Positions 33,688 to 53,803 of a stretch of DNA of 64,000 nucleotides are shown here, piece by piece. The notes beneath the pieces are model-generated. The model did not search any database and was not told the DNA's origin. It saw only the letters and a program-made list of their open reading frames with translations. Source of the stretch: an uncultured Rhodospirillales bacterium (GTDB lineage: Bacteria > Pseudomonadota > Alphaproteobacteria > JAWKYA01); assembly GCA_964397465.1 (NCBI GenBank), contig CAYNIC010000011.1:3503-67502 (forward strand). The letters run 5' to 3'. A program made the translations under genes and the position numbers. How positions within the stretch are numbered: the stretch's first letter is position 1; each line of letters starts with the position of its first letter.

Positions 33688-33724
33688 GAAATTCCTTTCT
33701 AAGAGATCAAGAATAATCCCTACC

Positions 33725-35434: not shown

Positions 35435-35466
35435 AAAAATTCTCCTCAAGATGGGGTTAGAAAAAC

Positions 35467-36960: not shown

Positions 36961-37319
36961 GACAGATCATCATCCTCGGCATCATCGTCCGGCACGGTAT
37001 CGTCGGTATCCGCCACCGCATCCCGCGCCCGGGTCAACAGCGACGCCAAGGCATCGTCGCTTTCCGCTTCTTGATGATCCACCGCCCACCGCGCCAGACG
37101 TAACAGCCCATCCAAATGTCCTAGGGCGGATTTGCACGCAGTATGATAGGCGGAAAAACCCTTGGCGGTGTTGTCGCAGGGTGCGGCGACAAACTGGGTA
37201 TAGCTGTCCAAGGCGGTGGCCAATAAAACGGGAAGATCCTGGGCGATTTTTTGCCGGGTGGACTCGAGGCCCTTTTGGGTGCGGTTTTTGCTGGAAAGTT
37301 TTGATACCGAAACTGTCAC
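36957..37319 (-). CDS. hypothetical phage protein with acidic C-terminus (in the position of the terminase small subunit)
   Basis: 120 aa. ATGA overlap with terL. No recognisable motif. Confidence 0.35.
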   Translation of the reverse strand: MTVSVSKLSSKNRTQKGLESTRQKIAQDLPVLLATALDSYTQFVAAPCDNTAKGFSAYHTACKSALGHLDGLLRLARWAVDHQEAESDDALASLLTRARDAVADTDDTVPDDDAEDDDLS

Positions 37320-37354
37320 GTCATGTCCTTTCGAGGGAAAACAAAGGCAAGAAA

Positions 37355-37585
37355 TTATCGGGGCGGCAGTGTGCCGGTGATTCCAGTGGCGATTTTTAGA
37401 AACTGTTCCAGCCGCGCCTCGACCTCAGCCAATCGGGTTTCCAGGGGCAGGGAAGATGCCGGTGAAGAAGGTGATGAATCCGGCGGCGCAATGAAAACCG
37501 CCGAGGCGGTTTCGTCGTTTTTCAGGATATAGTTCTCGTCCTCCCATCGAACGCTAAGACCGCGGTTACTGTAGATATAGGGCAT
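37355..37585 (-). CDS. hypothetical phage protein
   Basis: 76-aa ORF between the tail fiber and the terminase module. Confidence 0.3.
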   Translation of the reverse strand: MPYIYSNRGLSVRWEDENYILKNDETASAVFIAPPDSSPSSPASSLPLETRLAEVEARLEQFLKIATGITGTLPPR

Positions 37586-37594
37586 GGAACCTCC

Positions 37595-40087: not shown

Positions 40088-40111
40088 GAGAGTGTCTCCT
40101 TATAGAGGCGC

Positions 40112-40603
40112 TTAACGGATCAGGGATATTTGCTGAATGGCGTAGTGGGTTCCGGTGTCCAGCAGGCTGCGGCCGATGGCGTTCGCCGGCGACAAGCGAC
40201 GCTCGCGGTCCAAAATCTTGGCGCGCTGCTGCGTTTGGGCGATTGCGGCGCCGTTGTCGGCGAGGTCAGCATCCCGTTTGGCCAAGGCTTGTTCCGTCGC
40301 GTCGGCATGACGCGATTGCATCGCCTGTTGCAAGGCCGCCGTACTGCCGCCGTCATCATTGATGCCGCGCGCCGCCGCACTGGTGCGGGCGCCGCCCAAC
40401 TCGCGGCGTAACCCAAGGCGCCGGGTCGCTTGATCGGTCTCGAAGTTGTCGGCGATCAGCGAGCGTCGCCGCTGCAAGGACGCCAGTTGCTGCTGGGCAG
40501 CGAGGCTTTGCGCTTTCGCTTCGGCCCGGCGGGCGGGAAGATTCAGCGCCGTTTGGGCTGCTGTGGCGGCAAGCTGTGGAAGTAACGGGGTTGACGCGGC
40601 CAT
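40112..40603 (-). CDS. hypothetical virion protein (T7 gp13/gp14 position)
   Basis: 163-aa Ala/Gln-rich protein between the tubular protein B gene and the tail fiber gene. One-nt overlap coupling. Confidence 0.4.
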   Translation of the reverse strand: MAASTPLLPQLAATAAQTALNLPARRAEAKAQSLAAQQQLASLQRRRSLIADNFETDQATRRLGLRRELGGARTSAAARGINDDGGSTAALQQAMQSRHADATEQALAKRDADLADNGAAIAQTQQRAKILDRERRLSPANAIGRSLLDTGTHYAIQQISLIR

Positions 40604-42534
40604 CAGTCATTCACCTTAAGTTCGCAGTTGACGGAAAGAAGCGTGAAGGAAAAAGGATTGCTTTGGGTAATGCGCCACAGCGGTTCCAGCGCGCCGCGAT
40701 GCCAGCCCAAGGCCCGCACCGTGACATCGCCGGTATAGGCCGCCGGCGGTGAGTCAAGATTGACGCCGCCGATCGTCTGCAACGGAACCAATCTTGGTCC
40801 GCGGCCCACATCAACCATCAAGGCGGGGGTGTCTTTGATGCGGAAGGTGGCGCGGATCAGCCGCAAGGGCTCACCCTGAAGTTCTCCGTTGTCCGACGGC
40901 GGCAGGGGCTCGATGCTGTGGGTAAAGGCAAGACCTACTTCGATGCGGGTGGCGGTGGCGGCCAGAGAAATCACCCCGCCTTTGACCTTATAAAGGCCGA
41001 GCGGCCGGCCATCGGCGATGACCGTCACCCATTTGTCGTTGAGATGGGACAGCCCGCCCCAAATCGATTGGGCTTGTTCGGTTTCGCCCAACAAGGCGGC
41101 ATCACTGTTAAGTTGCGGATCAAATTTTTCGATCCGAAAATCGGCAAAACGTTTGGCCAAGGCATAGACGTCGCCGCCCACCACGGCGACGGCATGAAAC
41201 TCGCCGTCGGTTTCCAACCGCGTCCAGGCGGTGACATTCTCCGAGCGATAAAGGGTAAGGGCGCCGAGGCCGCCGTCGCTCATCACCACGTAAAGCACCC
41301 GCGACTTATCGGCGTAATCCATGTCGATCGGATCCGTCACCAGATGCGGAGCCAGCACCGAGAGGTCGCGGGCTTGGTAAGCCGCCTCGGCATCGGTATA
41401 AAGAAGTTCGCGAATTTGCCGGCCGCTGCGCGCGGCAAACAGGGTTGCGCCTTCAACCGCGCGGGGTGGTACGGTGCGATCAGGGTGTGAGCCGACGGTG
41501 GTTTGCCGTTTCGCCTGGACCGTGGCGGGAGATAACGGCTCGCCGGTGATCTGCCACTCGCCGCCGGTGGTCAAAACAAACAGCGTCAGACCGGAATGCA
41601 TCCCGCGAATGGCGTCGACCTGTTCCGACAACAATCCGAACTCGATCGCATCGTCATCCTCGCCGATGCCAAGATCAAAGTTGAACAGATCCGAAGTCCG
41701 CGACATCCAGATCCGGTTGGGGATCGACCGGGCGCCGCCGAACACCAACCGGTCTTGGGCGAAGGCGACGCTGGCGGGCCAGCCGCGATAGGGTGAAAAC
41801 GCCTGCTCGGACCAATCGGTGATGGCGGTGGTGTTGGGCAAGGACAGGGCCAGCGTCACCTTCACCGCCGTTGCCGAGGTGACCTCGATGATGGCGACAT
41901 CCTGGTTGGGCAGGCGTAAGTATGCGCCCAGCTGCGCCGGATCAAACACCGGTGCCGATGCGGTCAAGGTAATGGTGCCAGAGGTGCCGCTGGGCGTTAA
42001 GGTCACGGTATCTCCGGCGAAACGATAGAACGGATGATAGCGGCGTTTGGTTGTCGTATTGGCGACAAAGGTTAGATCCGCCAAAACCCAGGTTTGCGGC
42101 CCTAGACGGGTGAGGGTCTTTGGCGCAACATCGGGATGACAAATAAACAACGTGTCCGCACTTTGCGCCCAAGTCAGACGCTTGATCTGATCCGCCGTCC
42201 ACGGCGTGGCCACGGTGGCGATGACCGCATCATGGTGCAGGATGGTGATCTGCTGATGGGTGACGACCAACAGATAAGTCTGCTCGGCATTAAAGGCGAA
42301 ACCGATCAGACGGCCGGAGCCCGCGGCGATGGCGATATGACGCAGGCCAGGCCGGCGCGTCACGCCTCCGGTCGGCTGCACCAAAATATTGCGCAGTTTT
42401 TTTGCGGCGTTGCTGTACGACGCAAGATCGCCCCGGCCGTAAAGATCGCTCGATACTTCGCCGGCGGTGAAATTATTTTTGAGAACCCGCATGCGTCCCA
42501 TCTCAGCCTCCTCCAGTCCAGCCGGTAAGATCAA
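40603..42534 (-). CDS. tail tubular protein B (T7 gp12-like)
   Basis: N-terminus MRVLKNNFTAGEVSS...VQPTGGVTRRPGL parallels gp12 (NLKGGISQQP...GLQKRPP). Size 643 aa. Synteny after the tubular protein A gene. Confidence 0.65.
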   Translation of the reverse strand: MILPAGLEEAEMGRMRVLKNNFTAGEVSSDLYGRGDLASYSNAAKKLRNILVQPTGGVTRRPGLRHIAIAAGSGRLIGFAFNAEQTYLLVVTHQQITILHHDAVIATVATPWTADQIKRLTWAQSADTLFICHPDVAPKTLTRLGPQTWVLADLTFVANTTTKRRYHPFYRFAGDTVTLTPSGTSGTITLTASAPVFDPAQLGAYLRLPNQDVAIIEVTSATAVKVTLALSLPNTTAITDWSEQAFSPYRGWPASVAFAQDRLVFGGARSIPNRIWMSRTSDLFNFDLGIGEDDDAIEFGLLSEQVDAIRGMHSGLTLFVLTTGGEWQITGEPLSPATVQAKRQTTVGSHPDRTVPPRAVEGATLFAARSGRQIRELLYTDAEAAYQARDLSVLAPHLVTDPIDMDYADKSRVLYVVMSDGGLGALTLYRSENVTAWTRLETDGEFHAVAVVGGDVYALAKRFADFRIEKFDPQLNSDAALLGETEQAQSIWGGLSHLNDKWVTVIADGRPLGLYKVKGGVISLAATATRIEVGLAFTHSIEPLPPSDNGELQGEPLRLIRATFRIKDTPALMVDVGRGPRLVPLQTIGGVNLDSPPAAYTGDVTVRALGWHRGALEPLWRITQSNPFSFTLLSVNCELKVND

Positions 42535-43114
42535 ATCCGCCGGCGGTTTCTTCCTGGGCGTCGATCAGACGGGCGCGGCGAAATTCTTCCTCGGCGGCAC
42601 GGGCCAAGGCTTCGGCCCGGGATGAATTCTCGGTCAAAGGAATGCAGAACTCGGCCGCCAGGCGCGCGATCAGCACATGATCAAAGAACGGCGGAAAATC
42701 CGCTTCGCCGGGGCGAAAAATATAGGTCAGGATCACTTCATCGGCGTGGGCGTGAAGCCGCCGCTCGGCGATGCGGTAGGTAAGCCCGCGCCCGCGACGG
42801 CCGTTACCGGCGGAAAGGGCGCGAAGATAATCGCCGGGCAATTGAAACGCATAGGCATAGTCGGCGGGGGGCGAGGCCGCCAAGGGCGCAAGCCGCCGTT
42901 GCGCCGTGGCGAAATTCCACGGATGGGCGGAGAGCAGGGCGTCCCGCGTCGACGGATAAAGCAGGCTGGCCACCTCGGCGGCAGCGGAGCCTTCGTCAAA
43001 TCCTAAAATAGGCGCGGCGCCGATTTTCACCAGCGCTCGGGCACAAAGTTGAATGGCGCTCAGAGCCATGGCTCGTTGCCTTTCCCATAAAAAAGCTCCG
43101 CGGCGATGAACCAT
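42503..43114 (-). CDS. tail tubular protein A (T7 gp11-like)
   Basis: 203 aa. MALSAIQLCARALVKIGAAPILGFDEGSAAAEVASLLY...HPWNFA parallels the gp11 N-terminal pattern. Confidence 0.6.
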   Translation of the reverse strand: MVHRRGAFLWERQRAMALSAIQLCARALVKIGAAPILGFDEGSAAAEVASLLYPSTRDALLSAHPWNFATAQRRLAPLAASPPADYAYAFQLPGDYLRALSAGNGRRGRGLTYRIAERRLHAHADEVILTYIFRPGEADFPPFFDHVLIARLAAEFCIPLTENSSRAEALARAAEEEFRRARLIDAQEETAGGFDLTGWTGGG

Positions 43115-43152
43115 CGCCGGCGGAGCCGATCACAACAGAGAAAATAGATTTA

Positions 43153-43410
43153 TTAGTCGGTGTTCACGCTGCCGACGGCGGTCATGTCGGCGACATCGAC
43201 CGTGCCGTTCTGGCTGGAAGCGATCAGAAGAATGCCGGCGCCGCCGTTGACATTGGCGAGAATCATATCGCCTTTGCGCAGCATATCTACGGCGGGATTA
43301 AAATAGCCGTTGGTATCGACGATGTCGGCGGTATCGGTCGAGGCATAATGCCAAAGGGTAAAGCCGTTGGCATAGGCCAGCACCGAAAGGTTTCTGGCAA
43401 GATAGGCCAT
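43153..43410 (-). CDS. hypothetical phage protein
   Basis: 85-aa ORF between the capsid and tubular A genes. Confidence 0.35.
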   Translation of the reverse strand: MAYLARNLSVLAYANGFTLWHYASTDTADIVDTNGYFNPAVDMLRKGDMILANVNGGAGILLIASSQNGTVDVADMTAVGSVNTD

Positions 43411-43448
43411 GAAGATCTCCTTTATCTCTTTAAGCTAAGGGTGAAATT

Positions 43449-44273
43449 TTACGCTTCGCTGCACGGCAGGGTGACAAGACCGGTGCCATCGACCAGCACC
43501 GCGCCCAAGGACAGCGAGCAGCTGACGAACCACGCGGCCCGATCGTTGTGATAGGCGATGTCGGTGTTGACTTCCGATCCCACCGCGAGGGCAAGGGCGG
43601 TCTTGTGCCACCAATGGCACAGGCGGTGACCATTGCCGTCGAGGCCAAGGCCGGAATGGGGCATCCACAAGGTTCCCAGCCAGCGCTTGGCCTGGGTGCC
43701 GCGCCAGGGCAGATCGTCGCTGCCGACATAATCGGCATTGGCGAATTCCTGGATCATCAAGAGATCGGACCATTGTTTCCATCCCACCACGGCGTAACGA
43801 TCTCCGTCATCGGGCACATCGTTGCCGCCCAGGATGCCGAAGGCCTCCAGCACCTTTTGTTTGGTGAGACCGCCGCTAACCGTCGGAGTCAGATTGGCCG
43901 AGGTGTTCATCTGCGCCAAAATCAGCTCGTCGGTTTTGCGGCCCAAGGCATAGGCGCCGGCATTGGCCACCACCGCCCGCTCTTCGTTCTCGGTCTTAAG
44001 TTCGTCCAGGGCGTCCACCCATTCGCCGGCATAGTAATCCGACAGAAAACATTCGATCGGCGCGTGATCGATGTTCATCACCGGCACCTTGCCGTGTCGC
44101 GCTTTGGTCGAAGCGCTGCCCTTGCCGACTTTTTGAAACACGGTGGAGGCGCCTTTAACGCTGCCCTTGGCGCGAACGCAAGGGCGGAGCTTGGCGCCCG
44201 TACGCTGATAGGCTTCGTGAACTTCCTTTTCGAACTGCTTGATGAAAGCAGCATCAATGGAGGGTTTATTCAT
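43449..44273 (-). CDS. major capsid protein (T7-like podovirus type)
   Basis: 274 aa. Position between scaffold and tail tubular genes. Weak pattern similarity to gp10. Confidence 0.6.
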   Translation of the reverse strand: MNKPSIDAAFIKQFEKEVHEAYQRTGAKLRPCVRAKGSVKGASTVFQKVGKGSASTKARHGKVPVMNIDHAPIECFLSDYYAGEWVDALDELKTENEERAVVANAGAYALGRKTDELILAQMNTSANLTPTVSGGLTKQKVLEAFGILGGNDVPDDGDRYAVVGWKQWSDLLMIQEFANADYVGSDDLPWRGTQAKRWLGTLWMPHSGLGLDGNGHRLCHWWHKTALALAVGSEVNTDIAYHNDRAAWFVSCSLSLGAVLVDGTGLVTLPCSEA

Positions 44274-44394
44274 GGTGATCCTTTCAGAAAAAATAAACGG
44301 TTGAGTCCGGCCACGGGTTATCCGCGCAGGGGCGGGCTTGCAGCCGGATGAAGGAAAAAGACGGGCCGCCGCAACGGTTGTCCGTAATTAAGAC

Positions 44395-45132
44395 TTATGA
44401 ACTGGGGTAAAGACGGCGGAAGCCCTCGCTGACCTCGGCCACAAAGGCGGGGTCTTTGTGCTTCCAATAGCGGGGATCGCGCATCATCTTGGTCAGATCC
44501 TCTTCGGTTAAACTTGCAACCGCGGTGCCGCCACCGCCAAGCCGCGGCGGCGATCCGCTTTGCATCATGGCGTGAAGCGCCAGAACGCCGTCGCTGGTCG
44601 AGGCCAAGGCGTCGAACACGTCGCGCGGCAGGTGGGCCGTGCCCCAGGCGTTGAGTTGCCGGGCGATTTCGCGCCATGCCGTATCGCCGCCGAAATGGGC
44701 GATCAGTCGCTCGCGCTGTTTTTGCGCCTCGAATTCCGACGCCAGATCGGTGATCGCCGGCAGCATGCGTTCGCCGGCGAGATCGTAAACCAGCTGAGCT
44801 TGGCGCGGCGTGAAGTGGGCCGCGTGCAGGCGACCGTTGACATCCGGATCAATGTCCAGAAAATCGGTGCTAAGATTGATCTCGTAAGCATCGGGTGTGT
44901 CGGGGATACCGAGCGCCCGGCGGAAGGCTGCGGTCTCCGTCTCGTCGGCATCATCTCGCGGCACCCGCACCATGGTCGATAGTTTTCGCTCCAGCTCCAA
45001 ATAGGATCGCGCCAGTTTCGCCACATCGGGCGCGCCGGTTTGCGGGTCCAAAAATTTCTGGGGAATTTGCACCGTGTCGGATGAAGGGGCGGCGGGCGTA
45101 TCCGATGGTGTGGTCAGTAAACTCTCGGTCAT
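44395..45132 (-). CDS. capsid scaffolding protein (probable)
   Basis: Acidic, helical protein starting MTESLLTT. Position between portal and capsid. The long N-terminal extension of the ORF is Arg/Pro-rich and not credible. Confidence 0.45.
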   Translation of the reverse strand: MTESLLTTPSDTPAAPSSDTVQIPQKFLDPQTGAPDVAKLARSYLELERKLSTMVRVPRDDADETETAAFRRALGIPDTPDAYEINLSTDFLDIDPDVNGRLHAAHFTPRQAQLVYDLAGERMLPAITDLASEFEAQKQRERLIAHFGGDTAWREIARQLNAWGTAHLPRDVFDALASTSDGVLALHAMMQSGSPPRLGGGGTAVASLTEEDLTKMMRDPRYWKHKDPAFVAEVSEGFRRLYPSS

Positions 45133-45136
45133 GGCA

Positions 45137-46669
45137 TTATCCTTTTGTCGACGAAAGGGTTTGCGCCTCAACAGAGGCAGGTAAAATTTCAGAAGAAATC
45201 GCTGCTGGAACATCGGGACGTAACAGGCTCGCCGGCAGGTCCAGCATCTTGGCGGCCCATCTGGCGGCGGCCGGCGCATCCAAGGTCGCGGCGGCGTCCG
45301 GCCCCAACTGCTTGGCGATGTCCAGCCACGACAAGGCGCCTTGCGCCTCCAACTGGGCTTGCCGCCGCGCCAAGGGCGATCGGTATTGCAAGGTGATGGT
45401 GCGACCATCCAAGGTCAGGTTCGGCAATTCGCCGCGCCGGGATAAAATCGCCAAGGCCCGCGCCACCAACGGCGTCAAAAGTTCGGCCTGCAGCCGGCCG
45501 TAGGTTGCGCCCAATAACCGCGCGGTCTCCGCCGCCCGGTGCAGAACTTCGGTTGCGGTCATGCCCGGCGTCGCCACACTTGCCAGGCGGTCGGTCAGCA
45601 GACTGGAGCGGATCGCTTGCCGTAGGGTGGCAAGAGTCAAATCCGAGACATTGAAATTTCCCGGCACCTGCAAGGGCGTCAGGCCCGATGAGCCGACCGC
45701 CTTGGGAATGATGGTGCCCGGCACCAACCTCACCGTCGCCGGATTTAAAACACCGTCGTCATCGGCCTGCCAAATGCCGGTGACGGCGATGGCGGCGTTT
45801 TTCAGCGTCAACTCAACCACCTTGTTGGCGGTTTTGATATCGGGCAATGCCTTCATCACCGGCGAGCGGCCATAGGCCTCGCCCGGCGCTTTCATCCAGC
45901 GAAACGACAAAAAGGGCGATTGATCCAATCGCGCCTTGGCCAAAAGATGCGGGCCGTTGAATTTCTCCGCACCGCCTTCCAACACCGCGACGTAATCGTA
46001 ACCGTTGCCGGTCTCGCGGGGGACCACCGCTTCGATCACCGTGTAAAGACGATCGCTGTCGGTTGCGGCGGAAGCGGGAATCTCCGCTGCGGGAAAGCGG
46101 CTGTGCAGTTGCAGCCGGCTCAACCGATTGCGACGATAGGCGATATCCAACCTTCCCTCGGCGCCTTCCTCCAACACCACATCCCACAACGGCACGGCGG
46201 CAAAGCGAAAGGCGCTGGGTTGTCCCGGGGCGGTTTCTTCAAAGGACAAACAAGCCGTGCCCGACACCACCAAATCCAGAAAGCATTGATGAATCTCCAC
46301 CGCAAAATTCGAGCGATCGAAATGCTGCTGCAGAATCTCGGCGGCGCGATCGAGTTTCGGCGCCAGGTCGCCGTGCAGGTGTTCGGGAATTTCCCGGCCG
46401 GGGGCAAAGCCGAACCATCTGGCCCAGGGCGGCGTCAGTTCAGCCAGCAAACTGGCCGCCAATTGATCCACCGCATCGGGGGCGGTGCCGTCGAACAACC
46501 GCTCGCGGCTGGCGGCGGATAGACTGGAGGGCCCCGCTCCGGCAAAGGGCGTCTCATCCCGCGACGGCAAACTGTAGGCATAGCAGTCGCGCCACACCGA
46601 CTCCCAGGCGCTGCGCTGCATCTTGGCGCGGTGAAACCGGGCCATCACGCTTTCCGGCGTCATGATCAC
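45137..46669 (-). CDS. portal (head-to-tail connector) protein, T7 gp8-like
   Basis: 510 aa. N-terminal VMARFHRAKMQRSAWESVWRDCYAYSLPSR parallels the gp8 N-terminus. Position 5' of scaffold. Confidence 0.75.
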   Translation of the reverse strand: MIMTPESVMARFHRAKMQRSAWESVWRDCYAYSLPSRDETPFAGAGPSSLSAASRERLFDGTAPDAVDQLAASLLAELTPPWARWFGFAPGREIPEHLHGDLAPKLDRAAEILQQHFDRSNFAVEIHQCFLDLVVSGTACLSFEETAPGQPSAFRFAAVPLWDVVLEEGAEGRLDIAYRRNRLSRLQLHSRFPAAEIPASAATDSDRLYTVIEAVVPRETGNGYDYVAVLEGGAEKFNGPHLLAKARLDQSPFLSFRWMKAPGEAYGRSPVMKALPDIKTANKVVELTLKNAAIAVTGIWQADDDGVLNPATVRLVPGTIIPKAVGSSGLTPLQVPGNFNVSDLTLATLRQAIRSSLLTDRLASVATPGMTATEVLHRAAETARLLGATYGRLQAELLTPLVARALAILSRRGELPNLTLDGRTITLQYRSPLARRQAQLEAQGALSWLDIAKQLGPDAAATLDAPAAARWAAKMLDLPASLLRPDVPAAISSEILPASVEAQTLSSTKG

Positions 46670-46983
46670 TCTCCCAATAAAATTTTGCGGGCGGGGATAA
46701 GGCGCGCCGATTTGCCGGCGGTAATGGCAGGCTGCTCCAGCACGCCGGTCAGTCCGGTTTTGACGGTGGTGGCAAGGCCGCGGCGAATCCGGCGGTGCGG
46801 GTGAAGATCTTCCTTCACCGCGGCGGATAGGGGCGGCGGTGCCGGAACCGGCGGTGGGGTGGGGGCGATAAAGCGGCTGGCCATCAAGGATCTCCCTGAA
46901 GCAGGTGGAACGAACGGGACAAAGGGTGGAAAAAACAAAACCCGCCGCGGTTTCCCGGGGCGGGTGAGAAGAGGCGGAGTCAT
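46666..46983 (-). CDS. hypothetical phage protein (first gene of structural operon)
   Basis: Pro-rich small ORF. ATGA overlap with the portal gene. Start may be the internal MASRF. Confidence 0.3.
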   Translation of the reverse strand: MTPPLLTRPGKPRRVLFFPPFVPFVPPASGRSLMASRFIAPTPPPVPAPPPLSAAVKEDLHPHRRIRRGLATTVKTGLTGVLEQPAITAGKSARLIPARKILLGE

Positions 46984-46998
46984 GGCCTCATGTGTTCC

Positions 46999-47027
46999 TA
47001 TATAGTTCTCTTTTCAGTTCCTGTCAA
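46999..47027 (-). promoter_or_regulatory. consensus sigma70-type promoter reading into the structural operon
   Basis: On the minus strand: TTGACA, a 17-nt spacer, then TATATA. Confidence 0.5.
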
Positions 47028-47109
47028 CGGTATTTTTTCTTAAAAAATGAAAAAGAAGCTGGCCGCCTGTGGGCAAGGTTTCCTTCCGGCTGAATCCCCA
47101 GCGTCTATT

Positions 47110-47562
47110 TCAAGAACGGCTTACCCGACCCGCGGGATTTAAAAGACGTCCCGCGTTCCTGTCCGTCAGGGATAAAAATAACCGCCATGGGGTCCAAATA
47201 AATCGGCGCCGCAGGTGCAAAATATTTTTTACCACGGCAACGCAGGTCATCGGCCGCAGCAGGTTAAGACAAGATCGATGGCGCCGCGGGGTGCGGGTCA
47301 TCGGCATCATCACGGGAATCGGCACCGCACCCTTTGCGGTATAGAATCGAATCATCTCCGCAACGGAGTAGGGAGGAAGGAGTTTGATCATCAGACGGCC
47401 GCACAGGGGATCCACCATGATCCATCCGCTGGCGATTCGATAAAGGATAAAGCAATGGCGGAAGCCTCGTTTCAACAGATAAAACCATGGAAATTCCAGC
47501 TCGCCGCGAAATACCACGATCGCCGTAACCCCGCGGCGCGGACGATCAGAGTCGGCGGTCAT
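47110..47562 (-). CDS. hypothetical protein (early/regulatory region of element)
   Basis: 150 aa starting MTADSDRP. ATGA overlap with the upstream gene. The longer 244-aa ORF has an Arg-rich, non-credible extension. Confidence 0.4.
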   Translation of the reverse strand: MTADSDRPRRGVTAIVVFRGELEFPWFYLLKRGFRHCFILYRIASGWIMVDPLCGRLMIKLLPPYSVAEMIRFYTAKGAVPIPVMMPMTRTPRRHRSCLNLLRPMTCVAVVKNILHLRRRFIWTPWRLFLSLTDRNAGRLLNPAGRVSRS

Positions 47563-47924
47563 CGGACGATTCCCTTGGCCCGCAGCGGCGGCGTCAAACG
47601 CTCTAACGCTTCGCGCCACAGCTTGGCGAAGTTCGCCTCTTCGCCCCGGGCATAGGGCGACGGAGCGCGGCCCATGCGGCCGTAGTGCATCAGGATTTTG
47701 ACATGAGCCCGGCGCAGGCGCCGTCGCTCGACCAGCCGCACCAGCTCGCGCACCACGTCGTCGGGCTCGCAGGGTTTGGGGGTGGATTTTCCCGCCTCGA
47801 ACCGGGCGCCGTCGGCGCGGGCGGTCAGGCAGGCGACGCACCAAAACCAGCAGGCTAAACTCGTCGGGAAAGGCTCCCCAATCGTTGTTCCCTTGCCGGT
47901 GGTGATAAGCTTCAACTGGCCCAT
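47559..47924 (-). CDS. hypothetical protein, possible Cro/CII-like regulator
   Basis: 121 aa, divergently transcribed from the repressor gene. Cys cluster CWFWCVAC. Confidence 0.4.
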   Translation of the reverse strand: MGQLKLITTGKGTTIGEPFPTSLACWFWCVACLTARADGARFEAGKSTPKPCEPDDVVRELVRLVERRRLRRAHVKILMHYGRMGRAPSPYARGEEANFAKLWREALERLTPPLRAKGIVR

Positions 47925-47969
47925 GGCTTTGCTCCCTTGAAGGGCTTTTTTCTCTCGCGGTAAACGAGT

Positions 47970-47984
47970 GTTCTATTATTGTTC
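47970..47984 (+). promoter_or_regulatory. alphaproteobacterial LexA-type SOS box (GTTC-N7-GTTC)
   Basis: GTTCtattattGTTC lies in the divergent intergenic region between the regulator gene and the repressor gene. A TTCAC-N7-GTGAA palindrome sits at 48058-48074. Confidence 0.5.
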
Positions 47985-48084
47985 GCTATTAGAGGGAGAG
48001 TCTATATGCACAAATACCCATGTCAAGCCTGAATCAGAATTTGATCCTAGTGACATTTTTCACCTGAATTGTGAAGGTGTTCCC

Positions 48085-48717
48085 ATGTTGAGACATGCGG
48101 ATATATGGCGGGGGATTGACCGTTTGGCTGCGACACATAATTTGTCGCCCTCGGGCTTGGCTCGAAAGTCAGGATTGGATCCCACCACCTTTAACAAATC
48201 AAAACGGGTTGCCCGGGATGGCAAGCCGCGTTGGCCGACGACGGAAAGCCTGGCGAAGATTCTGTCGGCCACCGGCGCCGGCATGAACGAATTCGTCTCA
48301 TTGATGAGCGAGACTCCCGGCACCTCGGTAACCCAGCGGATCCCGGTCATCGGCTATACCCAAGCGGGTCAGGCCGGTTACTTCGACGACGCCGGTTATC
48401 CCGCGGGCAAGGGCTGGGACGAGGTGGAGTTCCCCGATGTCGGCGATCCTCACGTTTATGCGCTGGAGATCAACGGCGACAGCATGATGCCGGTTTATCG
48501 CGACGGCGACGTGGTTGTGGTCTCGCCCCAGGCGCAGATCCGCCGCAACGACCGGGTGGTGCTGAAGACCGTCGAGGGCGAGGTGATGGCCAAGGTGCTC
48601 AGCCGCCGGTCGGCCAAGAAGATCGATCTGCATTCGCTCAACACCGATTTCCCCGATCGCAGCCTGGACAGCGACGACGTGCTGTGGATCGCGCGGATTA
48701 TCTGGGCCAGCCAATAG
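48085..48717 (+). CDS. phage repressor, HTH plus S24 (LexA-like) peptidase domain
   Basis: N-terminal HTH region (SPSGLARKSGLDPTTFNK). C-terminal S24 domain with GDSM and a following Lys (ALEINGDSMMPVYRDGDVVVV...K). Confidence 0.8.
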   Translation: MLRHADIWRGIDRLAATHNLSPSGLARKSGLDPTTFNKSKRVARDGKPRWPTTESLAKILSATGAGMNEFVSLMSETPGTSVTQRIPVIGYTQAGQAGYFDDAGYPAGKGWDEVEFPDVGDPHVYALEINGDSMMPVYRDGDVVVVSPQAQIRRNDRVVLKTVEGEVMAKVLSRRSAKKIDLHSLNTDFPDRSLDSDDVLWIARIIWASQ

Positions 48718-48731
48718 TCTTAGCGCCGATT

Positions 48732-48874
48732 GATTCCGCGATTCCTGTCGCAAGATTCCATTCCTTAAATGCCGGAGTCCGACTCTTCTCCTAACTTGGG
48801 TATGAAGAGTCGAGATTGCTGTCGATTAGGAATCCTTGAATCGCCCCCGAATCTTCAATGAATCTTTCTGAATC
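48732..48874 (+). promoter_or_regulatory. cluster of 11 GANTC (CcrM methylation) motifs in 143 bp
   Basis: gattc x3, gagtc, gactc, gagtc, then gaatc x5. Also contains a GACTCTTC/GAAGAGTC inverted repeat. Confidence 0.6.
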
Positions 48875-48952
48875 CCATTTCGGAGGCGACTAGCTGGCGC
48901 CGGTTGCGTAGCCGGCCTAGGATCGGTCGCCACCTTTAAAGAAAGATCCGCC

Positions 48953-49813
48953 ATGGCGAAGAGTCTAAGTAACGAGGATAATTGTCAGACCTTCGTCGAT
49001 GGCCGGTGGATCGCGGGCAATCCGCCGCTGATGCATGCTATGACCCATGCGGTGTGGTTGGGATCGGTGGTGTTCGACGGCGCGCGGGCCTTCGACGGCG
49101 TGGCGCCCGATCTTGATCTTCATTGCCATCGGGTCGTCAATTCGGCATCGGTGTTGGGCTTGGCGCCGACCCTGACCGCGACGGCGATCGAAGATCTGGC
49201 GCGGGACGGCATCAAAAGATTTGCGCCGAACACCCCGCTCTATATCCGGCCGATGTTCTTTGCCGAGGACGGGATGCTGGCGCCCGATCCCGCCACCACC
49301 AAATTCGCCCTGGTGATGTGGGAGGATCCCTTGCCGGCGCCGACCGGATTTTCCGCAATTGTCACACCGATGCGGCGCCCGCCGCCCGAAGCGGCGCCTT
49401 CGGAAGCCAAAGCGTCTTGTCATTATCCCAATCTGGGTCGCGCGGTGCGCTGGGCAAAGGAACGCGGCTTTGACAACGGCGTGGTATTGGATCCCGCCGG
49501 CAAGATCGCCGAATTCGCTTCATCGAATATTTTCTTCGTGCAGGACGGGGTGGTGGTGACGCCGGCGGCCAACGGCACTTTCCTGAATGGCGTCACGCGG
49601 CGCCGCGTGTTATCGCTGTTGCGCGCTGATGGCGTGAAGGTTGAGGAACGGGTAGTTGACCCGTCAGAGCTTGATCGCGCGTCCGAAGTTTTCTCCACCG
49701 GCAACTATGCCAAGGTCATGCCGGTGACGCGGATGAACGATCGCAGCCTGCAGCCGGGACCGCTGTTCCGCCGCGCCCGCGAGCTCTATTGGGGTTATGC
49801 ACATGGGAAGTAA
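48953..49813 (+). CDS. class IV aminotransferase (branched-chain amino acid / D-amino acid aminotransferase family)
   Basis: Fold-type IV PLP enzyme pattern (FxxDG...Y...R..F, conserved E...K region). 286 aa. Confidence 0.75.
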   Translation: MAKSLSNEDNCQTFVDGRWIAGNPPLMHAMTHAVWLGSVVFDGARAFDGVAPDLDLHCHRVVNSASVLGLAPTLTATAIEDLARDGIKRFAPNTPLYIRPMFFAEDGMLAPDPATTKFALVMWEDPLPAPTGFSAIVTPMRRPPPEAAPSEAKASCHYPNLGRAVRWAKERGFDNGVVLDPAGKIAEFASSNIFFVQDGVVVTPAANGTFLNGVTRRRVLSLLRADGVKVEERVVDPSELDRASEVFSTGNYAKVMPVTRMNDRSLQPGPLFRRARELYWGYAHGK

Positions 49814-49829
49814 CGTATGAGAGGGAGTT

Positions 49830-50627
49830 ATGCCTTACGTACAGCGAGATAAAAAAGGAATTGTAACAGGGTTATTTGAACATAAATTACCAGAGGCTAC
49901 TATGGAATTTCTGGAAAAAGACGATCCGGAAATTAAAGACTTTTATGATCGATTTCCACTATCGCCTCAGATGATAGAGGCGCTTCGCCCTAAATCTACA
50001 AAAGAGTTACTCGAACAGCATCAAAAAATTGAAAAAGAATATAATCAACTTATAGAAGACCATAAAGCACTTCAAAATCTCATTATATCTTTATTAGGTG
50101 TATGGGCGGAAATGGAGACTAGCTTTGCTGGCTTACTAAATGTTCTTTTAACAGGAAGTAGAGAAAAATTGGCGTTTGCACTTTACTTTTCTATTCGAAA
50201 TTTTCAAACGCAAATGACGGTAATTCAAACACTTGGTGAAGTGCTTTTTCCTTCCGAAGAAAATTCAAAAAAAGTGTATAAAGAATGGGAGTCAGTTTTT
50301 AATAAAATTAAAAAGGAAGTACCTGAAATTCGAAACAGAATCGCTCACGGGCATATAGTCCAGTTCTTGCACGAGAAGAAACATATACGTGTTTTGCCGC
50401 CATTTTTTGATTTCATTAAAATAGAAAAAAGCAACGCAAAAGCTGAATTACCTGGAGTTGGACAAAACGAAATATACAAAAGTATAAAGGTAATAGGCCT
50501 AACTTCTCAGTTTGCCAATCGCTTGTCGCTTATTTTTAAGCGTTCTTTTGAAGGCGAGGCATTAGCACTTAAAGAAATTGATTTGGAGCTCAAAAGTTAT
50601 AAGGAAAATTTCAAAAATTTAAGATAA
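49830..50627 (+). CDS. hypothetical protein with HEPN-like Rx4H motif (Abi-like)
   Basis: AT-rich (about 35% GC). All-helical protein. EIRNRIAHGH matches the HEPN R-x4-6-H motif. Confidence 0.5.
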   Translation: MPYVQRDKKGIVTGLFEHKLPEATMEFLEKDDPEIKDFYDRFPLSPQMIEALRPKSTKELLEQHQKIEKEYNQLIEDHKALQNLIISLLGVWAEMETSFAGLLNVLLTGSREKLAFALYFSIRNFQTQMTVIQTLGEVLFPSEENSKKVYKEWESVFNKIKKEVPEIRNRIAHGHIVQFLHEKKHIRVLPPFFDFIKIEKSNAKAELPGVGQNEIYKSIKVIGLTSQFANRLSLIFKRSFEGEALALKEIDLELKSYKENFKNLR

Positions 50628-50765
50628 CAGATGATATAAACATCAGCACCGCCATACGTCGTGTCAATGTCCTGAGATCGACTATCCGCCGGTGCCCTTC
50701 AGCAATAAACCCTTTGCCAGCCTCAGCCCGCTTAAGTAGCATTGCGCGGAAGGGATTTTCGTCTC

Positions 50766-51779
50766 ATGACGCTAAATTATCTCGAACTGATTATCGGCAG
50801 TCTGTGCTTAATCATCATCGGCTTCTGCGCCGGTGTTGTTATCCATGCCGGCGAGATCATTCCCTATCAGCCGCTGATCGTCGGTTTGATCGCGCTGGGC
50901 GGCGCGGTGATCGCCTATGTCGGAACGCTGAGGGCATCCCACGCCCATCTGCAGGTCGCCGAGAAGAACATCAAGCATCAGCAAGAGCAGAAGGCGCTGG
51001 ACTCTATCAACGAGAAACAGGAAATCGCGTCCTTTGCGCAAAAGCTGCTGCTGGAAATATTCAATTATCTGGTGGCGACAAGCCTTCTTTCCCGGGACCA
51101 GGCCATCGATGAAAAATGGCTCAACCTCTTGACCCTGAAAGACATGATAGAGCGATATGTCACCAGGATGGAGGACGCCTCGGATAAATTCATGAAACTG
51201 GACATTAACAACTCCAGCCGAATTCATCTGATCATTCGCGGCTTGAAAAACATCCTGCCCGAGGCGGAGACGATCCAAAATATAAATCAGCTGATGAAAA
51301 CCGGCGACAATGGCGCGATCTGCGCCCAGTATATCAACCGCACCTATGAATATATCGGGACATTCTTGAACGAGAACGTTACGGTACATGACATCCTTAA
51401 CGACTTGGATGTCATCTCCAAGGGCAATGTGGATCAATCAAGGGCGTATTCGATCTTGACGACGGATCTGAGAAAAATCATCAACGAGAATCTGAGGCTT
51501 ATTCAATCCGCCGTCACCGCGGGCCGCTATCTCGAGATCGATTATCCGCCGGGGCGCCGGGTGGTGGCGCCGCATATTTTGGGGCGCACCAGCAGTGGCG
51601 AGCTGGTGCTCAGCGTCTATCAAGTCAACGGCGCCAGTGATGCTGGCGAGACGGTGGGGTGGAAGACTTTCCATCTCGATCGCATTTTGGGCGTAAGGGT
51701 GTTGGATAAACGCTTTTCACCGCAGGGCGATTACAATCCCCACGATCCGAAAATACCCGAAGTTATCGTCAAGGTATAA
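50766..51779 (+). CDS. membrane-anchored protein with C-terminal WYL domain
   Basis: Two N-terminal TM helices. The C-terminus RRVVAPHILGRTSSGELVLSVYQVNG...WKTFHLDRILGVRVLDKRF matches the WYL consensus (..P..L....wYL.......R.FrLdRI..v.vL...F). Confidence 0.5.
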   Translation: MTLNYLELIIGSLCLIIIGFCAGVVIHAGEIIPYQPLIVGLIALGGAVIAYVGTLRASHAHLQVAEKNIKHQQEQKALDSINEKQEIASFAQKLLLEIFNYLVATSLLSRDQAIDEKWLNLLTLKDMIERYVTRMEDASDKFMKLDINNSSRIHLIIRGLKNILPEAETIQNINQLMKTGDNGAICAQYINRTYEYIGTFLNENVTVHDILNDLDVISKGNVDQSRAYSILTTDLRKIINENLRLIQSAVTAGRYLEIDYPPGRRVVAPHILGRTSSGELVLSVYQVNGASDAGETVGWKTFHLDRILGVRVLDKRFSPQGDYNPHDPKIPEVIVKV

Positions 51780-51806
51780 GCGCCGCAGCGCGCCTGTTGC
51801 AGGTGC

Positions 51807-51885
51807 GGATCACTGATCAACAGTTTTCATCGCAGCTAAAGGACCATCTACGCGATGTGATTGTCACTCCCATCAGCTCTGCAAA
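51807..51885 (+). repeat. about 80-bp direct repeat, copy 1 (about 75% identical to 53179-53257)
   Basis: gcggatcactgatcaacagtttt...gtcactcccatcagc versus gcggataactggtcaacagttttt...gtcgctcccatcactgc. Confidence 0.45.
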
Positions 51886-51903
51886 TAGGTCTATACGGTT
51901 CAA

Positions 51904-52623
51904 TTAATTTGTCGTTTGAAAGCCACGAATCGCCCAGAGTATTGACCATCCAAATATAAAGATAATCGTTGGGGGAATGATAAACATACCCAGGATAAAT
52001 AATAAACTTTTGTCAGCTATAGATCGATATTCTTTGGCATGGTTTTTTGCGGCATCAATTTTGTCTAACCGGCTTACTTTAGATTTGTAGATTTCTGCAG
52101 GGTTACGGCCGCAAGGAAGATCTATGATCTGTCTTGATTTTTCTGCCAGATTCTTATTCAGAATATTTCTAGCATCTTGAATAGATAATGACCTAAAATC
52201 AACAATAGTAACCCAAGCTTCTCGTTTAAAAGCTTCCACTATAGCTTCCAGCTGTTCATCAGATAATTTTTCAAAGTCAAACTTAGTTTGGGATGACGGA
52301 TTTTGTTTCTCCGTTTGTCGTTCTGGTGGGGGAAAATTTGATTCTTGTATTTGATTAAGATCTATCCAGCCGTTCTCCATAAAATAGAAGATAGGCTCAG
52401 TGCGGCATTTAGTTCTATAATACTTTCCTACTTCCGGTTCAGGCAGAGAGTCTGTCTCTGATTGTAGAAAAGATATTTCGCGATCTGCTTCTGCAGAACG
52501 CCTTATATTATTAGTATATTCCGATTTCAATTCGGTTAATACCAGCCAAGCTACCAGCGAAACCCATATTGCACTAATTATCAGCCATAAACGAAAAAGC
52601 CCTCTTCCAAATCTAGACATCAT
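51904..52623 (-). CDS. hypothetical membrane protein (N- and C-terminal TM helices)
   Basis: 239 aa, AT-rich. Last gene of a three-gene minus-strand cassette. Confidence 0.45.
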   Translation of the reverse strand: MMSRFGRGLFRLWLIISAIWVSLVAWLVLTELKSEYTNNIRRSAEADREISFLQSETDSLPEPEVGKYYRTKCRTEPIFYFMENGWIDLNQIQESNFPPPERQTEKQNPSSQTKFDFEKLSDEQLEAIVEAFKREAWVTIVDFRSLSIQDARNILNKNLAEKSRQIIDLPCGRNPAEIYKSKVSRLDKIDAAKNHAKEYRSIADKSLLFILGMFIIPPTIIFIFGWSILWAIRGFQTTN

Positions 52624-52813
52624 ACTTTAGGCACTCTTCTGCAGAAGCAACTTCAGATTTTAATTTTGAATAATCTATATTTTCACCCCAAGGTTTATCG
52701 TCTCGAGCGTTCTTTAAGGCGTCGCTGCAAAGATCTTTATTGCTCAAATTCGTAAATGGATATGAATAGAATTTTGGTGGGTAGTCTGGAATAGTAACTT
52801 TCACACATTTCAT
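52613..52813 (-). CDS. hypothetical small protein
   Basis: 66 aa. Overlaps neighbouring genes, which suggests translational coupling. Confidence 0.3.
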   Translation of the reverse strand: MKCVKVTIPDYPPKFYSYPFTNLSNKDLCSDALKNARDDKPWGENIDYSKLKSEVASAEECLKYDV

Positions 52814-53046
52814 TGTTTGATCTTTCCATTATTTTTTATAATTTGGTTGGGATCGAATCCCTCCGCCACAAGAAGTGAGCTAAGTTGTTCACCAAAACTT
52901 TTACTGTCTTCATATGCGAAGAGAGGCTTTTGAGTCTTATCAGATACAGATATATAAACGCGCCCTTGACCCGCATGCTCAAAATCAAAGTTGTAGCCAA
53001 GGTCATGGAGCGCAATGAGCATTCTGGCGTTGTTTGTATTGCTCAT
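52810..53046 (-). CDS. hypothetical small protein
   Basis: 78 aa, first gene of the AT-rich cassette. Confidence 0.3.
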   Translation of the reverse strand: MSNTNNARMLIALHDLGYNFDFEHAGQGRVYISVSDKTQKPLFAYEDSKSFGEQLSSLLVAEGFDPNQIIKNNGKIKQ

Positions 53047-53178
53047 TAGGTTATGCTTCCCTTTTATTTCTATTTAAAAGGGTATCATTAAATATATATA
53101 ATTTTAAATAGTTTTAAAAACACCTGACTTTTCAGTATCTTCTGCCTAGAAATCATTTTTAGCGCATTGTGTGGTTGC

Positions 53179-53257
53179 GGATAACTGGTCAACAGTTTTT
53201 ACCGAAATTGAAAGCCATCCGCGCGAAGTGACGGTCGCTCCCATCACTGCGCGGATT
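53179..53257 (+). repeat. about 80-bp direct repeat, copy 2
   Basis: See copy 1 (51807-51885). Lies upstream of the minus-strand cassette. Confidence 0.45.
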
Positions 53258-53284
53258 TAACCGGCGTCTCAGGTCAACCCGGCG

Positions 53285-53494
53285 CTAACACGTCGCGTAG
53301 GTCGGGCTTTGCGCCGCCTCAAACACAAACATCACTTCCGACGGAATAATGTCATGGGGCAACTGGCCCTTTTCCTGTGCTGCTTTCAACACAAGATCCT
53401 TCACATCGCGTCGCATCGTGCTGTTGAGGGTTTGAAAACCGCCGACCCCATAAGGGCCAACTGTTTTTCCGTGGTATTTGATAAATACGTTCAT
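53285..53494 (-). CDS. hypothetical small protein
   Basis: 69 aa beginning MNVFIKYHGKTVGPYG. The upstream part of the ORF is AT-rich and unlikely to be coding. Confidence 0.3.
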   Translation of the reverse strand: MNVFIKYHGKTVGPYGVGGFQTLNSTMRRDVKDLVLKAAQEKGQLPHDIIPSEVMFVFEAAQSPTYATC

Positions 53495-53803
53495 CGTAAC
53501 TCCCTCCCGCAGTAAACGGTTGTCCCCGTTTCCCGGTATTTTTTTAAGTGCAGTTACTTTTTTTCTAGGCCATATCGCGCGTTTAAGGGCGCCTCGGCCG
53601 TATGATATCCGATCTAGAATACGCAGCATTATAGGCACTGCATGATCGGGTCCACAAGCAAAGATCGTAAGCTCATGATTACGTTGAGCAATAAAAATAG
53701 TCGGGCGACGTTTTATTAACCAATTATTTTTTCTGAAGAAAAATAGCGTGGCCATACGCTAATTTTAGCGACGTAAATACCTCGGAAATACTTGGTTTTT
53801 ACG

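Follow-up and report, generated by a model that had tools for sequence, protein, structure and literature searches.

A cluster of eleven GANTC sites upstream of an aminotransferase gene as the expanded form of a conserved, genus-specific intergenic element in an uncultured Rhodospirillales bacterium

In the genome of an uncultured Rhodospirillales bacterium, eleven GANTC pentamers follow one another within 143 nucleotides (nt) of intergenic DNA. They belong to a stretch of 64,000 nt of contig CAYNIC010000011.1 (assembly GCA_964397465.1), called here the window, to which all coordinates refer, and they separate a gene coding for a regulator with a helix-turn-helix (HTH) and a peptidase S24 domain, S24 in what follows, from a gene for a branched-chain aminotransferase. 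To judge from its relatives, this array is the most expanded version of a conserved, genus-specific element of 111 nt, rich in sites of the type that the adenine methylase CcrM would modify. We propose that the cluster acts at the level of DNA, as a methylation-sensitive array of protein-binding sites that would modulate the promoter of the aminotransferase gene. We give this reading a probability of about 0.45, somewhat less than even odds. Everything stated here about the function of the element comes from the analysis of sequences, those of the 64-kb window and of its relatives from metagenomes and from GTDB.

The eleven sites span positions 48732-48874. Three GATTC (48732, 48740 and 48754) are followed by GAGTC (48775), GACTC (48781) and GAGTC (48807), and then by five GAATC (48830, 48838, 48849, 48860 and 48870). 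The sequence and a pattern search thus bear out the number, order and span given in a preliminary description of this DNA, as well as its statement that they lie in a short intergenic stretch, here bounded by the end of the S24 gene, at 48717, and the start of the aminotransferase gene, at 48953. That the count is far above chance expectation is also beyond doubt. In 143 nt one would expect 0.52 site from base composition, or 0.28 from the density in the remainder of the window; when the 143-mer is shuffled 100,000 times the mean is 0.54 site and the maximum 6, and the Poisson probability of at least 11 sites is about 2e-14. The next densest segment of this length in the 64 kb has four sites. 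Simple GAATC satellites, which the preliminary description named as grounds for refutation, are not what is found. Tandem Repeats Finder (TRF), run down to a minimum score of 30, reports no tandem repeat in the array, and the 64 kb contain no other such cluster. From one pentamer to the next the spacers bear no relation to each other, and the repeats have nothing but the pentamers in common, which is the signature of an array of binding sites, not of a duplication. The five right-hand sites are moreover helically phased (R = 0.88 at 10-10.5 base pairs (bp), p ~0.02).

This accumulation is found in DNA that otherwise avoids the motif. Over the window GANTC is depleted about twofold, with 141 sites observed versus 276 +/- 15 in dinucleotide shuffles (log2 of observed over expected about -1). 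With a second-order Markov model the ratio of observed to expected is 0.67, the third lowest of 16 comparable palindromes, behind GGNCC and TGNCA. Metagenome-assembled genomes of Rhodospirillales, studied by single-molecule real-time (SMRT) sequencing, have all four GANTC variants methylated and the motif more than twofold under-represented (PMC8919816), a figure that the depletion in the window matches. More generally, CcrM is vertically conserved in the alphaproteobacterial orders, with the exception of Rickettsiales and Magnetococcales, and GANTC is under-represented overall while being enriched between genes (PMC3973325).

The conserved core occupies 48732..48842 on the + strand, as do all the parts described here. 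Gapless in nine variants, it contains seven conserved GANTC, at 48732, 48740, 48754, 48781, 48807, 48830 and 48838, and its layout may be written GATTC-N3-GATTCCTGTCGCAA-GATTCCATTCCTTAAA-(11-nt linker)-GACTCTTCTCCTA(NNN)TGGGTATGNAGAGTC-GNG-ATTGCTGTCGATTAGGAATCCTTGAATC. It opens with a left arm, GATTC-N3-GATTCCTGTCGCA (48732..48752), an imperfect inverted repeat of the right arm, with which it makes the first helix of an RNAalifold consensus (columns 1-21/89-111). Next come the third GATTC with the conserved ATTCCTTAAA (48754..48769; in relative L214 the site has become GATTT and this GANTC is lost) and a linker of fixed length, 11 nt, and variable sequence (48770..48780, variable columns 39-49), where the GAGTC at 48775 is found only in the window lineage and in L216. 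The centre is a palindrome able to form a hairpin, C-GACTCTTC ... GAAGAGTC-G (48780..48812), and the segment 48770-48822 folds with z = -3.8. The inverted repeat noticed there in the preliminary description does exist, but it is 9 bp long instead of 8: CGACTCTTC (48780-48788) and GAAGAGTCG (48804-48812) enclose a loop of 15 nt. Within that loop CCTA and TGGG (48790-48793 / 48797-48800) make an inner stem, closed by an apical loop (48794-48796) that differs between lineages; all three substitutions of the central loop region, about 15-16 nt long, sit in these 3 nt. The core ends with 29 nt, ATTGCTGTCGATTAGGAATCCTTGAATC (48814..48842), which are the same in all variants and hold both the right arm and a GAATC-N3-GAATC pair. 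Beyond it, an extension limited to the window lineage and L216 (48849..48874) adds three more GAATC, at steps of 11, 11 and 10 bp. The central base of GANTC is ordered along the core, T, T, T on the left, C, G in the middle and A, A on the right, which makes the left and right halves inverted repeats of each other. With 47% G+C, the core is poorer in these bases than the window (57%).

Two sets of relatives inform us about the history of this element. The close relatives were obtained from the 90%-identity protein clusters of the S24 and aminotransferase genes (12 and 17 members, respectively); their aminotransferase is 88-98% identical to that of the window, and their cores make up the nine distinct variants just mentioned. 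Four metagenomic contigs with an identical aminotransferase are 100% identical to the window. The distant relatives are 80 GTDB loci around the S24 gene. Every complete spacer obtained from the close relatives holds the core, exactly 111 nt long and without a single insertion or deletion. Of the 111 columns 22 vary; they fall in the linker (11 nt), in the apical loop (3 nt), in the N3 that separates the two leftmost sites, at two positions of CTGTCGCAA and at three others. Identity with the window core goes from 0.85 to 0.99, while the fourfold degenerate sites of both flanking genes have fallen to 63-74% identity between the window and the most distant variants, L211 and L217, and the DNA on either side of the core is unalignable and variable in length (from the S24 stop codon to the core there are 13-38 nt, and 13-15 nt in most lineages). 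A core that evolves more slowly than fourfold sites, between flanks that cannot be aligned, must be under purifying selection. It is the GANTC columns that vary least, 1 of 35 versus 21 of the 76 other columns (Fisher p = 0.0017), a difference which becomes 1 of 35 versus 11 of 65 when the linker is set aside (p = 0.05).

Beside the core, GANTC sites have been gained independently in three lineages. The window and L216 have in common three GAATC downstream and a GAGTC inside the linker; one GATTC and one GACTC were added in L217, L225, L229 and L232; and L231, the sequence of which is truncated, has several sites. The gained sites use all four central bases, and their start-to-start steps are recurrently 8 and 11 bp, as inside the core. 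At the background rate, at least three sites in 51 nt, as in the extension of the window, have a Poisson probability of 1.7e-4, and the second probability calculated for these gains is 3.6e-3. Nothing similar was seen farther away: the spacers between the S24 and aminotransferase genes of distant relatives have 0-1 GANTC, the 80 GTDB loci never show more than 4 GANTC per 150 nt, and the more distant relatives, those with an S24 protein at most 72% identical, are without the element. The core is thus confined to a group of the rank of a genus, its nearest outgroup (72% identity of S24) being devoid of it. Two curiosities of these variants deserve mention. The core of L232 joins a left part and an extension of the L217 type to a linker and a central hairpin of the L211 type, which suggests recombination between element variants within the genus. 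In L231 (positions 1-90) the terminal GGAATCCTTGAATC unit is duplicated, and its TTGAAT stands 15 nt upstream of a -10-like hexamer, TATGCT, of the type seen in distant relatives; there the array itself may supply the -35 element.

Downstream of the array, the likely object of regulation is the aminotransferase gene (48953..49813, + strand), which codes for a class IV branched-chain aminotransferase of 286 amino acids (Pfam Aminotran_4, 1.1e-45) scoring 401.7 bits, versus a cutoff of 262, with the NCBIfam equivalog NF009896. Its putative promoter (48894..48923, + strand) is composed of a -35-like hexamer, CTGGCG (48894-48899), an 18-nt spacer and a -10-like hexamer, TAGGAT (48918-48923), placed 29 nt before the ATG. 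The pattern CTGGCG-N18-TA[GA][GA]AT is kept in all close relatives, with its spacing of 18 nt and with a spacer sequence that differs, and it is this conservation that points to a promoter; a generic sigma-70 scan predicts none there on the + strand. In four independent lineages an interval of 18-19 bp separates the end of the last GANTC, be it a site of the core or a gained one, from the -35-like hexamer, and the intervening sequence is unrelated from one lineage to another; in the window this interval is 19 bp.

Conserved pentamers, gained sites, the distance to the promoter-like motif and helical phasing fit an array of DNA sites read by a protein that contacts the promoter. In the mechanism that we envisage, the genus would have built a cis-regulatory DNA element of fixed length, 111 nt, extended here to 48874, just upstream of the aminotransferase promoter. 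Its working units would be the GANTC pentamers, arranged as pairs separated by N3 and by steps of N6, with a rough dyad around the central GACTC/GAGTC palindrome. In this alphaproteobacterium, which presumably possesses CcrM, to judge indirectly from a gene content like that of Rhodospirillales, from the depletion of GANTC and from the published record for this order, the pentamers would be targets of that methylase, and a DNA-binding factor reading GANTC would fill the array cooperatively. GcrA together with RNA polymerase is a candidate for this role, as is another protein sensitive to methylation or able to block it. By occupying the site nearest the promoter, some 19 bp upstream of the putative -35 hexamer, this factor would adjust the transcription of the aminotransferase gene, and of the variable genes that lie behind it, to how the DNA is methylated (fully, on one strand or not at all) and hence to the passage of replication. 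There are precedents for the components of this scheme. GcrA, which binds GANTC in its methylated form, is an activator of some promoters (PMC7987155, PMC8116508); promoters with several GANTC under methylation control exist in Caulobacter, for example P169 with four sites (PMC5172544), and regions upstream of ctrA have up to 5-6 GANTC per 300 bp (PMC8116508). The preliminary description had already thought of a methylation-sensitive promoter or operator; conserved pentamers, gained sites and the interval of 18-19 bp make it the best-supported reading, while the activation motif considered below and the distant spacers with their 0-1 GANTC do not speak in its favour.

Several other observations weigh against this reading. 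None of the eleven sites matches, on either strand, the motif YGAKTCK, which is the GcrA activation motif in Caulobacter; as this motif is not required in Brevundimonas (PMC7987155), we see in the mismatch only weak counter-evidence. The depletion of GANTC is not unique, since GGNCC (observed/expected 0.56, z = -9.2) and TGNCA (0.66) are equally depleted, which by itself hints at more restriction-modification or methylation pressure in this genome. CcrM would have no need of an ordered central base in GANTC. Much of the core outside GANTC is equally invariant, for example TGCTGTCGATTAG and CTTCTCCTA, and the element is therefore not just a row of methylation sites. Nor is the interval between the last site and the promoter-like motif the same everywhere: it is 18-19 bp in four independent lineages, 25 bp in L211 and 7 bp in L214, one helical turn short of the first value. 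In distant relatives the promoter is a different, canonical one and the array is missing, so that such control cannot be ancestral to the aminotransferase gene. Finally, the segment 48726-48860 forms, as + strand RNA, an unusually stable fold of -42 kcal/mol (z = -3.5; none of 200 shuffles does as well).

No small DNA-binding gene is consistently adjacent to the element in the relatives. That the array might be an operator of the S24 regulator was considered and rejected: a weight matrix of the box upstream of the S24 gene, built from TTCCTAGTGCA in 43 distinct relatives, gives 18.7 bits to its own site at 48040, and its best hit in the array reaches 2.1 bits, at rank 223. By-eye inspection, the sole means used for these, showed no convincing match to CtrA, IHF, sigma-54, FixK or Pho boxes in the array.

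An ambitious form of the methylation proposal, and a rather improbable one in our estimation, would make of the element a dedicated multi-site platform for reading N6-methyladenine (m6A), that is, a CcrM array of fixed geometry bound by GcrA or by another m6A-sensitive protein. The passage of the replication fork, or an escape from methylation, could then result in a sharp, possibly bistable, switch of metabolic and accessory genes. The Alphaproteobacteria would then have their own equivalent of the GATC/SeqA or pap-type epigenetic switches, created de novo within one genus.

The predicted fold opens the way to the explanation that we rank second, which is that the element works as RNA: it would form a long, imperfect hairpin where the S24 transcript is untranslated at its 3' end or intercistronic. 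It might stabilise that transcript, be the place where it is processed, serve as an atypical terminator or insulator, or be bound by a protein, and GAUUC and GAAUC would then be mainly segments of pairing stems. While we consider this unlikely, it has substance. With mononucleotide shuffles the z score of the + strand is -3.9, and the minus strand of the same segment attains -0.8 only; of 160 control windows from the 64 kb a single one reaches z <= -3.5, which puts the element at about the 99th percentile. The RNAalifold consensus has three parts, a closing stem of 20 bp (the two arms of the core), the hairpin at the centre and, inside it, a CCUA/UGGG stem the pairing of which is complete on the + strand only. 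Substitutions avoid paired columns, where 5 of the 22 variable columns are found versus 61% expected (p ~2e-4), and the three changes in the central loop are, as we have seen, all apical. The element also begins just behind the S24 stop codon in most lineages, and no + strand terminator is predicted between this gene and that of the aminotransferase.

Other observations speak against this reading. There are no compensatory changes (0), 30 of the 34 pairs never vary, and covariation does not exceed that of shuffled or slid controls, in sequences too similar for it to discriminate; one-sided changes keep the pair in four sequences, as G-U, and break it in five. A cmscan search of Rfam with 47000-50000, at E up to 1, returned no match, and no U-tract follows the stem in any lineage. 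The hairpin leaves unexplained the independent gains of unpaired GANTC downstream and their fixed distance to the promoter-like motif. Besides, any set of GATTC and GAATC sites will pair with itself, since each pentamer is the complement of the other, and a protein site with dyad symmetry would show conserved inverted repeats just as well. The lack of compensatory pairs, of an Rfam match and of a U-tract, together with the unexplained gained sites and distance, is what places the RNA second. The two functions are not mutually exclusive. A leader peptide was also considered, encoded by a micro-ORF (open reading frame) with its ATG at 48802 (M-K/E/Q-S-R-D-C-C-R-L-G-I-L-E-S...) that is present in all variants. 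Of its ten codons within the invariant 29-mer none has a synonymous change, its tails are longer in some variants than in others, and a proper ribosome-binding site is missing; what is constrained is thus the nucleotides, not a peptide, and this candidate was rejected.

Could the element be the relic, possibly domesticated, of a palindromic mobile or recombination element (a MITE, REP or RIME-like sequence, a transposon end, an att-like site, iterons)? The pentamer would then be a former site of a transposase, a recombinase or a Rep protein, and its identity with the CcrM target would be incidental. An imperfect palindrome of about 110 nt just past a stop codon, with a G+C content below that of its surroundings and upstream of an insertion hotspot, has indeed this air, and metagenomic GATTC/GAATC arrays with steps of about 10-11 bp belong to the ends of hAT transposons and to a putative phage or plasmid origin. 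We nonetheless regard this origin as improbable. A blastn search with short words found no second copy in the 64 kb or in the 80 related loci, where hits were limited to chance matches of 11-16 nt, and the plasmid and phage collections contain no match. Terminal inverted repeats with a target duplication are missing: flanking 10-mers and 15-mers recur at chance level, and one of them overlaps conserved C-terminal codons of S24. No integrase, transposase or rep gene is found nearby, and no repeat is common to the element and to the ends of the low-G+C island downstream. Above all, a neutral relic would decay like fourfold sites, yet this element is constrained.

Arrays of similar spacing were looked for elsewhere. 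In viral contigs the pattern had 100 hits, mostly tandem repeats; in metagenome contigs it had 26, roughly the number expected by chance, comprising satellites, hAT ends, a putative origin and a glmS array. None is homologous to the element. In the last case, seven GATTCC with steps of about 10.5 bp stand just downstream of a glmS-like gene (L201, 1960-2040), unrelated to the element. L185 and L188 have GGGGATTC repeats between AAA_25 and GIY-YIG genes, in what is a putative phage or plasmid origin, and L187 and L210 have the subterminal GATTC/GAATC repeats of hAT transposons. All that these unrelated arrays tell us is that such arrays are usually protein-binding sites. A replication origin in the window was likewise dismissed, as GC skew shows neither sign change nor inflection there.

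A further possibility is a variant of the methylation proposal with the opposite methylation outcome. The array would be the nucleation or occlusion site of a silencer of the MucR/H-NS type, where GANTC would be kept hypomethylated while the aminotransferase gene and the horizontally acquired genes behind it are silenced. In Caulobacter, Sinorhizobium and Brucella, MucR shields the GANTC of its target promoters from CcrM (PMC5172544; bioRxiv 10.1101/2024.03.01.583015). With its lower G+C content and its 7-11 GANTC, the element resembles the AT-rich regions that MucR targets, and it lies upstream of a hotspot for variable insertions of low G+C. We think that there is a slim chance that this is the case. 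MucR targets are AT-rich without a fixed motif, which leaves unexplained a gapless core of 111 nt, an invariant 29-mer and a grammar of 8- and 11-bp steps, and L217, which has no island, still keeps the element.

Another option is that the array serves the adjacent T7-like element as a boundary or for packaging (pac/cos), as the preliminary description had it, or as an attachment site. A structural cluster of the podovirus type does lie 0.8-2 kb upstream, and T7-type genome ends carry arrays of short repeats. This reading is very improbable. The array is about 0.8 kb from orf121 (which ends at 47924), the last gene of the phage-like element, the portal gene ending at 46669; an S24 gene of host type stands between them, and the array is internal to a conserved block, orf121 / S24 / aminotransferase, instead of marking the limit of the cluster. 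In 36-46 other genomes that have this cluster beside S24 the spacers contain 0-1 GANTC and no array, and there is neither a tRNA gene, nor an integrase, nor any similarity to phage records. As for chance, or a simple satellite devoid of function, it is scarcely credible in view of the Poisson value given above, of the lack of a tandem repeat and of nine variants conserved above the synonymous rate.

We would class the element with the clusters of methylase sites in regulatory DNA, an arrangement of a known kind. Its nearest parallels are the promoters controlled by CcrM and GcrA (Caulobacter ctrA P1, ftsZ, mipZ), which share with it intergenic GANTC directly upstream of a promoter, here a presumed one, in DNA that avoids this motif (PMC3973325, PMC8116508, PMC7987155). 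In contrast with these promoters, the density is several-fold higher here, 111 bp holding 7 conserved sites and 143 bp of the window holding 11; the sites lie upstream of the -35 hexamer, not within the core promoter, and none is of the YGAKTCK form; and they belong to a dyad-symmetric element of fixed length, with much invariant sequence outside GANTC, present in one genus, next to a metabolic gene. Promoters occluded by MucR (P169, P1149 and P2901 of C. crescentus, others in S. meliloti and B. abortus) resemble it by their several GANTC, an AT-rich region and the proximity of accessory genes, and there the methylation state is coupled to transcription (PMC5172544; bioRxiv 10.1101/2024.03.01.583015). 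They differ in having 1-4 sites and no defined architecture, where the present element has a strict grammar and a conserved length.

Outside the Alphaproteobacteria, local clusters of methylase targets recall the Dam GATC clusters. In Gammaproteobacteria these are found at oriC and in the dnaA promoter, with SeqA, and in the pap and agn43 switches; DNA-binding proteins read their hemi-, un- or fully methylated states, and helical phasing matters. Methylase, motif and host group are different here, the element is not at a replication origin, the GC skew keeping its sign, and no analogue of SeqA, Lrp or OxyR was identified. Cooperative arrays of operators or iterons form a third family, with ParR/parC, the heptads of the omega protein and the direct repeats of OmpR/PhoB-type regulators. 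Like them, the element associates a short conserved core with unrelated spacers, in direct and inverted orientations, with steps of about one turn, abutting a presumed promoter; unlike them, it comes with no identified gene for a cognate protein, and the boxes upstream of S24 do not match the array. Palindromic intergenic repeats (ERIC, RIME, REPIN, Correia, MITEs) similarly include imperfect palindromes, and one of about 110 nt just past a stop codon would fit among them; the present one differs in being single-copy in the sequence searched, in having no terminal repeat with a target duplication, and in being under purifying selection at one orthologous locus.

The surroundings of the array have features of their own. 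The S24 gene (48085..48717, + strand) codes for a LexA/CI-like regulator of 210 amino acids with an HTH domain (Pfam Peptidase_S24, 5.5e-23; HTH_26, weak). What had been called a phage-like repressor is rather a conserved chromosomal gene of Alphaproteobacteria than the private repressor of a prophage: the protein has more than 8000 homologues, and the gene is present with conserved neighbours in 80 of the 80 GTDB loci. Identity is about 60-72% in Azospirillaceae, Kiloniellaceae and other genomes of the Rhodospirillales type, the best match outside the genus, at 72%, being from Azospirillaceae. The recurrent gene order is portal-...-orf150-orf121 (minus strand) / S24 / aminotransferase, with orf121 in 45 of the 80 loci, the portal gene in 36 and an aminotransferase gene adjoining S24 in 37. 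Some 100 nt before the S24 start (47985-48087) are conserved at the DNA level across orders, in the sequence TCCTATGTCAA, then GTTCCTAGTGCA, then AAGACAATGTTCCC abutting the ATG, with no obvious Shine-Dalgarno sequence; over the same region, in L005-L084, this conservation is unusually strong for a promoter or leader. In L005, L006, L024, L037, L045, L050 and L072 the spacer between S24 and the aminotransferase gene is 315-560 nt long and contains an apparent additional small ORF, absent from the window lineage, the products of which seem, by eye, to share a motif rich in tyrosine and arginine.

Upstream, on the minus strand (33725-47924), lies the T7-like podovirus structural cluster, with genes for a holin-like protein, the large terminase, tail fibre, tail tubular proteins B and A, major head, scaffold and portal, and small ORFs that include orf150 and orf121. 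Among the ORFs scanned no integrase, replication, RNA polymerase or internal-core gene was seen, and there is no tRNA gene. The same cluster stands beside S24 in 36-46 of the 80 alphaproteobacterial genomes, in several orders, and in loci without it pyrD (29887-31335 in the window) abuts S24. It resembles less an ordinary prophage than a cluster inherited vertically and perhaps domesticated, akin to a gene transfer agent (GTA) or a tailocin. The 64 kb contain exactly two copies of the alphaproteobacterial LexA-type box, GTTC-N7-GTTC, one at 46994-47008, just upstream of an operon of small ORFs and portal, the other at 47970-47984, in the divergent promoter region of orf121 and S24. Within 220 nt or less upstream of S24 such a box is present in 15 of 45 loci with orf121 versus 1 of 34 without it (background 0.002 per 220 nt), and it is identical in all close relatives that reach that far upstream; this suggests that the phage-like cluster is under SOS control. 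Between pyrD and this cluster, a first insert of low G+C content (32386-33750, about 45%) codes for a RelA/SpoT-domain protein matching the PADLOC candidate defence family PDC-S33 (E = 2.9e-104) and phrog_4773.

Directly behind the aminotransferase gene comes another insertion of low G+C content (49830-53800, 37-49%), with ORFs of 265 amino acids, of 337 amino acids (weakly WYL-like at its C-terminus) and of 239 amino acids (membrane-like). At the same position the close relatives have other genes or none: L217 has none, and L214 has a gene of the SocA_Panacea type. This differing content makes of the interval between the aminotransferase gene and those for a glyoxalase and a DinG-like helicase a hotspot of variable insertions. 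A link between this island and the array was rejected, as the ends of the island share no repeat with it and as close relatives can have the element with a different island or with none.

What this finding means depends in part on which reading is right. Its importance is limited by a narrow distribution, by hosts that are uncultured and by a basis that is purely genomic, and should the element act as RNA, it would be an unclassified structured element. Known control by CcrM concerns single promoters, via one to few GANTC. If this is a true CcrM array, its 7-11 sites would make it the densest natural CcrM target described, the literature consulted offering four sites in P169 and 5-6 per 300 bp at ctrA. 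Being young, restricted to one genus and still acquiring sites in some of its lineages, the element shows how a control region of this sort is built. It would also provide a compact natural substrate for finding out what reads clustered m6A in Alphaproteobacteria, be it GcrA, occluders similar to MucR, or something new.

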